34,434 bases of DNA from Escherichia coli (GTDB lineage: Bacteria > Pseudomonadota > Gammaproteobacteria > Enterobacterales > Enterobacteriaceae), in NCBI RefSeq assembly GCF_003334385.1, contig NZ_QOWN01000046.1. One strand, given 5' to 3'. The notes under the pieces were generated by a model. It saw only the letters and a program-made list of their open reading frames with translations. It ran no database searches and had not been told where the DNA came from. The translations under genes were made by a program, and so were the position numbers. This document shows, one piece after another, positions 32,613 through 32,768 of this stretch; the stretch's first letter is position 1, and each line of letters starts with the position of its first letter.

Positions 32613-32768
32613 TTTTGATCCTTATGTATTGACTCGTAATATAAAGAGCACTATCTCCACCTACTATATACAAAAAAAAAAATCATTAGATAAATTAATA
32701 TCAATTTACTGGTACCCCCCCCCCCGGGAATCCTGGAGACTAAACACCCTGATAAAGAGGTAAACAGG

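Follow-up and report, generated by a model that had tools for sequence, protein, structure and literature searches.

Slipped-strand mispairing operates at contingency loci such as the C stretch in the fim promoters of Bordetella and the poly-C/G tracts in Neisseria promoters. Escherichia coli, a mismatch-repair-proficient species, is not known to use such switches. Within the window analysed here (the whole stretch of 34,434 nt from E. coli contig NZ_QOWN01000046.1, assembly GCF_003334385.1), a C tract upstream of a dispersin-family gene resembles the Bordetella and Neisseria tracts in being a pure C/G run of at least 10 nt whose length varies among otherwise identical sequences, and in preceding a gene for a surface-displayed protein. 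It differs from them in that any effect of its length on expression is putative, and in that it lies at an accidental IS junction approximately 103–113 nt from the ATG, beside a secretion system that is already broken.

The neighbouring genes correspond to the Aat/dispersin (CexE) glycine-lipoprotein export system, the biology of which has been described (PMC7943197). As in that system, a dispersin-family gene is followed by aatP, aatA, aatB, aatC and aatD, and the signal peptide of the substrate is followed by Gly (PMC7943197). In contrast to the known systems, the module in the window is a divergent variant, with an AatD only 41–47% identical to known ones; its aatD is frameshifted and IS fragments flank the module. 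The right-hand fragment shares 98–99% identity with intact 1310-bp elements of the IS629 type (IS3 family) from position 5 onward, with an intact right inverted repeat and with orfA and an orfB remnant that match the IS3 family. Unlike those elements, it lacks the terminal TGAA, is changed at position 7, has an 80-nt deletion in the frameshift region and has no target duplication, and so is a non-autonomous fossil. Lastly, the window contains counterparts of the frameshift pseudogenes found at short homopolymers in plasmids and host-adapted enterobacteria: the pilN indel lies in a C run of Pro codons, and the 1-nt deletion in aatD lies next to a T9 run. The pilN change, however, adds two nucleotides, where the gain or loss of one is usual. 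The features concerned are as follows.

8598–10219, minus strand: pilN, for the secretin lipoprotein of the type IVB thin pilus, in two fragments of 163 and 403 aa
9826–9836, minus strand: site 3, GTTA followed by C7 in pilN, where a C5 run in Leu-Pro-Pro-Pro codons has gained two nucleotides
25804–26110, minus strand: second IS629-like fragment, 307 nt (the first 307 nt of the element), with an intact left end TGAACCGCCCCGGG
27305–28587, minus strand: aatD pseudogene (Lnt-like acyltransferase), in two overlapping ORFs
28224–28235, plus strand: site 2, GGTA followed by C8 in aatD; coding strand ATG GGG GGG GTA CCT, in frame
28529–32147, minus strand: aatC, aatB, aatA and aatP-like genes of the Aat export system (ORFs; ABC ATPase match; FtsX permease by Pfam)
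32244–32612, minus strand: dispersin-family gene, 122 aa, signal peptide ...TFA/GG, Pfam PF28204 Dispersin
32672–32682, plus strand: A11 tract, equivalent to T11 on the gene strand, located between the dispersin-family gene and the C tract
32711–32714, plus strand: GGTA of site 1, where the native sequence upstream of the dispersin-family gene ends, or possibly one base later, at the C of 32715
32715–32725, plus strand: C11 tract of site 1, equivalent column for column to IS positions 1–11 (TGAACCGCCCC) and polymorphic in length
32726–33944, plus strand: remainder of the IS629-like (IS3-family) element, positions 12–1310, with an 80-nt internal deletion and an intact right inverted repeat ...GGGGCGGTTCA

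Sites 1, 2 and 3 are the only C or G runs of at least 7 nt in the window. On the plus strand, site 1 (32711–32725) consists of GGTA and 11 C in total, preceded by T and followed by GGGAATCC (context ...atcaatttacTGGTA, C11, GGGAATCCTGGAG), and site 2 reads gtggaGGTA, C8, atcacgg. Site 3 lies on the minus strand and reads gcGTTA, C7, accgg; on the plus strand it appears as G7 at 9826–9832 followed by TAAC to 9836. An earlier note on this DNA had described a recurrent G(G/T)TACC plus poly-C motif and regarded three instances as unusual, and the comparison with a shuffled expectation that it proposed, run on the window, agrees: GKTACCCCCCC has three matches, against 0.04 expected. The sites themselves stand, although two points of description do not. 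'GGTACC + C8' and 'GTTACC + C7' count two C twice, the totals being 11, 8 and 7, and the aatD site was placed at 28215–28226, about 9 nt from its actual position of 28224–28235.

At site 1, the boundary between native DNA and the IS element could be set by comparison with relatives that lack the insertion. Six IS-free relatives read (T)ACCAGTAAAT and then native sequence, with the continuation ...GGTAC/TGCAATAGC; relative L001 reads ...TTTACTGGTAC followed by TGCAATAGC, with variants in L437–L446, and at the same place IS-free relatives read ...TTTACTGGTAC followed by TGCAATAGCTG... or close variants. The GGTA(C), approximately 100 nt upstream of the dispersin-family gene, is therefore native flank, and TGGTA(C) is not a mutated TGAAC. 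It follows that the motif as a whole does not replace the IS629 terminus, as had been proposed; only the C run stands where TGAACCGCCCC belongs. With C11 the copy aligns gap-free to intact IS ends, such that TGAA is changed to CCCC and position 7 to C, and the CCCC that belongs to the element supplies the rest of the run. The second copy provides the internal comparison that the earlier note had suggested: its left end reads normally (TGAACCGCCCCGGGAATCC, 26110–25804), so the terminus at 32711–32725 is truly abnormal. The two copies are inverted relative to each other, and their left ends face the aat module. No other IS629 copy with a left end of C8 or longer was found in GTDB representative genomes or IMG/VR, and our literature search returned nothing on poly-C at IS629 ends.

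The remainder of the right copy has also degenerated. At 1230 nt (32715–33944), it equals 1310 nt minus 80, the deletion being joined at about 33098–33103 between 6-nt repeats. The deleted segment overlaps the AL1L frameshift pseudoknot annotated in an intact copy, and much of that region is gone; Rfam gave no match to the AL1L pseudoknot in the right copy, which thus lacks the programmed −1 orfA/orfB frameshift with pseudoknot. The 229-aa orfB remnant matches the NCBIfam model transpos_IS3 (NF033516) at 253 bits (cutoff 160), as expected of an IS3-family DDE transposase. The right end (...GGTTCA) is intact, and the left end has CCCC for TGAA and so lacks the 5′-TG of the terminal repeat. We found no target-site duplication of 3–4 bp, the sequence past the right end (CACTGCTTAC...) being unrelated to native TGCAATAGC. 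As both the terminal 5′-TG and the frameshift region are missing, the right copy is, judged by its sequence, an immobile, non-autonomous fossil. We call both copies 'IS629-like' because the annotation of the closest records goes no further than 'IS3 family transposase'.

The Aat module thus lies between inverted IS fragments on an IncK2/Z-like plasmid backbone. Outside the IS629-like copies, 24783–24953 and 34264–34434 form a perfect 171-nt inverted repeat that runs off the end of the window, which places the aat module inside larger inverted IS-derived arms; neighbouring gene calls near these arms in relatives include rve-type and ISL3 transposases. An intact 338-aa ORF for an IS3-family-type transposase (rve domain; 26169–27185), 97–99% identical to elements on many E. 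coli plasmids, lies between the left IS629 fragment and aatD.

Two homopolymers lie upstream of the dispersin-family gene. The C tract is 103 nt from the ATG, falls in no ORF and is outside the intergenic region conserved with IS-free relatives. The A11 tract is 32 nt from the C tract and is 11 or 12 nt long across the 12 junction-bearing sequences; in IS-free relatives this position is occupied by an interrupted tract, in most cases TTTGTTTTTTT. A promoter scan of the region gave no sigma-70-like or consensus promoter candidates. The exact 122-aa protein is indexed in 611 blocks of public assemblies, in which the organism is E. coli and the protein is called E. coli dispersin Aap or hypothetical protein; species-representative genomes contained no relatives of it.

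Site 2 is a run within a gene that is broken elsewhere. AatD homologues of 400–404 aa align across the C8 run without a shift (...SVMGGVPPLTP in the window, ...STMGLIIPLNP in homologues); since the run is in frame and homologues align through it, we rejected C8 as the lesion of aatD. The lesion is a −1 frameshift between 28331 and 28332, beside an A9 run at 28332–28340; on the coding strand, the T9 run is unchanged and the single nucleotide directly after it is deleted, at a distance of 96 nt upstream of the G8 run. In L037, an E. coli O51 relative with 88% identity, an additional base is present at this point and the frame is open. We also considered and rejected a contraction from T10 to T9 as the cause of the break, because the alignment puts the 1-nt deletion just past the unchanged T9. 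The A9 run is common to eight of eight other assemblies, and in all of them aatD is called as a truncated gene starting at the run. Unless slippage of the A9 run restores the frame, the dispersin-family substrate is probably not acylated in this lineage.

The ancestral state of site 2 is visible in the same relative, which reads GGGGATTT, that is GGTA/AAAT/CCCC, and has GGGGATTTTACC where the window has GGGGGGGGTACC: four adjacent substitutions with length kept. This change of ATTT to GGGG is the only 4-nt substitution cluster in approximately 1.1 kb of aatD at about 9.5% divergence. As outgroup proteins are hydrophobic at these positions, the G8/C8 run is the derived state.

For site 3, the window was aligned with five IncK2/Z or IncI-gamma relatives. 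The close IncK2/Z relatives read GCG TTA CCC CCA CCG (C5, GTTA/CCCCC) and more distant ones TTA CCA CCG CCG (TTACCACCGCC), and the alignment identified a +2 insertion (C5 to C7) at what the earlier note had recognized as the pilN frameshift site. C7 is also present in the Logan assembly of SRR3823653, ERR271222 has C6, and C5 is found elsewhere; the C6 allele in another sample suggests stepwise change. An exact-protein look-up found no record of the 163-aa N-terminal fragment. Gene calls in 21 contigs give an identical 403-aa C-terminal PilN product, with several different upstream disruptions. The gene thus seems to have been repeatedly inactivated in the IncK2/Z or IncI-type plasmid group, although some of these disruptions may instead come from low-quality Logan assemblies.

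The sequences, their inheritance, their length polymorphism and their ancestral states can all be read directly from the assemblies and relatives compared. Eleven other assemblies have the IS junction with identical flanks. Ten of these loci come from NCBI genomes or ENA gut metagenomes, and the eleventh is a JGI metagenome contig; scanning metagenomes for the flank yielded this one true match (C13) along with seven chance matches. Searches of PLSDB and of complete RefSeq E. coli records did not recover the junction. Among the 12 junction sequences, the window included, the C tract is 10 nt long in three, 11 in five (one of them the window), 12 in three and 13 in one; it is thus a slippable homopolymer that varies from C10 to C13 between identical flanks. 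The aatD C8 run occurs in eight of eight other assemblies. All three runs are real and inherited.

This evidence leaves very little room for the proposal that the runs are sequencing, assembly or consensus artefacts at homopolymers, which had been one of the explanations offered in the earlier note. Homopolymer length is error-prone on several platforms, and the exact count at the junction does differ among assemblies, so that part of the spread from 10 to 13 could be homopolymer miscalling rather than biology. However, the same tracts recur at the same places in many independent assemblies (11 for the junction, eight for aatD and at least one for pilN C7), and the change of TGAA to CCCC is not something an artefact would make. 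Moreover, when the window is set against a RefSeq plasmid 99% identical to it, the +2 change in pilN is the only indel across approximately 16 kb of coding backbone, from which it follows that the window is not full of homopolymer errors. Even less credible is a second explanation from the same source, that G(G/T)TACC plus poly-C is recognized or cleaved by a site-specific recombinase or by a nuclease such as a KpnI-like enzyme. GGTACC occurs only twice in the window, with a long run at both occurrences, but ancestrally these positions read GGTAAA and GGTACT, which means that GGTACC is a product of the run and not its precursor. A recombination site would have an imported core, a cognate enzyme and exchanged flanks; instead, comparison with relatives puts GKTA earlier than the run at each of the three sites, meaning that the prefix was not brought in with the run. 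We saw no recombination products or partner sites, found no matching recombinase or nuclease near the sites, and recovered no poly-C-ended IS629 from species-representative genomes or IMG/VR. A third possibility, which we regard as unlikely, is that the GGTA...CCCC sites 1 and 2, on the same strand and 4.5 kb apart, were joined by a templated event: with GGTA and CCCC as anchors, template switching or a short-patch ectopic conversion would have copied one tract to the other site. The two sites share a 12-nt identity, GGTACCCCCCCC; at both, the changed stretch starts right after an ancestral GGTA and ends in an ancestral CCCC, and the 4-nt cluster is unique within aatD. Anchoring on GGTA would make the shared prefix a requirement and not a coincidence. 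Against this, the anchors are only 4 nt each, a de novo origin is still needed for one tract, and pilN keeps TAAC and hence was not converted. The sole close aatD relative is 88% identical, so that the change may have been stepwise, and no intermediates are known.

A different question is whether the tracts near the dispersin-family gene have a function. The G10–13 and T11–12 tracts might form a phase-variation switch tuning transcription of this gene, and in favour of this idea, two long homopolymers of varying length lie within 113 nt of the start codon of a surface-protein gene, on its upstream side, while the sequence around them is invariant. We nonetheless consider such a switch improbable. 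The scan of the region found no sigma-70-like promoter, and the C tract sits at an accidental IS junction beyond the intergenic sequence conserved with IS-free relatives. That the locus is decaying is suggested by aatD, the partner acyltransferase gene, which has a frameshift in every assembly compared, and similar runs occur inside pseudogenes of a related lineage. Rather more doubtful is the conjunction of the two ideas, in which a sequence-directed process such as ectopic templated repair rewrites the interior of GGTA...CCCC to C and the resulting tract upstream of the dispersin-family gene acts as a length-variable switch. If true, identical GGTAC(n) tracts would have been created at unrelated places on one plasmid.

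Our data are more consistent with a model, to which we assign a probability of roughly 0.7, in which the three slippage-prone homopolymers of this E. coli plasmid, of the IncK2/Z type, originated independently from shorter or interrupted C tracts that were already there. The runs would arise by extension or 'purification' of such tracts, the putative seeds being the Pro codons of pilN, a G4 run in aatD and CCGCCCC at the IS end, and their lengths would now change by slipped-strand mispairing during replication. At site 1, an IS629-like element would have come to abut native ...ACTGGTA(C) upstream of the dispersin-family gene, and its outermost TGAACCG, now read as C, would have fused with the element's CCCC to give C10–C13. 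At site 2, G4 may have become G8 in frame, in an aatD probably already inactivated by the 1-nt deletion. At site 3, two C added to the C5 run of the pilN Pro codons would give a truncated secretin and, presumably, no thin pilus. Slippage as the mechanism, the succession of changes that produced the IS end and the functional losses are our inferences. The suggestion of slippage-prone sequence in the earlier note fits these alleles well, the junction running from C10 to C13 in otherwise identical sequences and pilN having C5, C6 and C7.

Purification of an interrupted run is also evident next to the junction, where T3GT7 has become T11–12. In the O51 lineage (GCA_013049705.1; L037 5961–7031; L051–L054), four G/C runs of 7–11 nt are present in a K88-like fimbrial operon; these G runs lie in faeJ, at its ribosome-binding site (replaced by one run) and just beyond. 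They replace CCGTCCTCC, GGCCTCC and ACCCACCAC of relatives, the fourth being outside the comparison, and all four vary in length among four assemblies. Taken together, the T tract and the O51 cases point to the conversion of interrupted runs into pure, longer and unstable ones as a recurrent process in these decaying plasmid loci.

The same lineage contains a further resemblance to site 1: the 11-mer TTTACTGGTAC (reverse complement ...TAC CAG TAA A; window 32704–32715) also ends the O51 faeI-like gene (L037 7032–7050), beside its G11 run. An origin of this 11-mer as the 3′ end of a faeI-like fimbrial gene is no more than a weak lead, as tblastn finds no gene remnant in the flank relatives.

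Two observations count against the model of independent slippage. All three long runs have the GKTA prefix, which precedes 0.77% of C-run starts in the window; the nominal probability of two further runs matching the prefix of the first is approximately 6e-5, or roughly 1e-3 once relaxed for the post hoc choice of motif, an adjustment that is our own judgement. At loci not chosen for GGTA, GKTA precedes 1.6% of runs of 7–9 nt against a baseline of 0.6%, with only three events. In IMG/VR, GGTA+C10 had at least 120 matches, against 85, 106 and 71 for three control 4-mers; many of the GGTA+C10 matches are G(n)TAC(n) palindromes or phage-specific repeats. These comparisons offer no evidence that the prefix promotes slippage in general. 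As G(G/T)TA was pre-existing neighbour sequence at each run, the common hexamer is a coincidence on this evidence, and the prefix shared by the three runs is most likely coincidental too, rather than a functional motif. The second observation is that AAAT in aatD and TGAA at the IS end were both changed to CCCC, in each case exactly the four bases that follow GGTA and with length kept. Simple slippage makes no length-neutral replacement, and the parallel at the two GGTA sites is therefore left unexplained by the model. Intermediate alleles were not encountered among the sequences compared.

The viral sequences themselves showed related patterns. Many viral contigs among the IMG/VR loci carry G(n)GTAC(n) palindromes, and many poly-C matches lie at contig ends. 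In some phages a motif of the kind TTTAGGTACCCCC(C...) or CCGCTGAAACGGTACCCCC recurs several times within one locus.

Overall, the finding is mostly ordinary and adds little that is new mechanistically. Its value is in part practical: the homopolymers are real and should not be 'corrected' in assemblies, and the frameshifted aatD and inactivated pilN are useful for annotation and for assessing whether Aat export and the thin pilus are functional. A decapitated IS end is carried by an E. coli plasmid module that, to judge by the 611 blocks containing its dispersin-family gene, is widely distributed. As well as this junction, there are several documented cases in which interrupted runs have become pure, unstable homopolymers in decaying plasmid genes.
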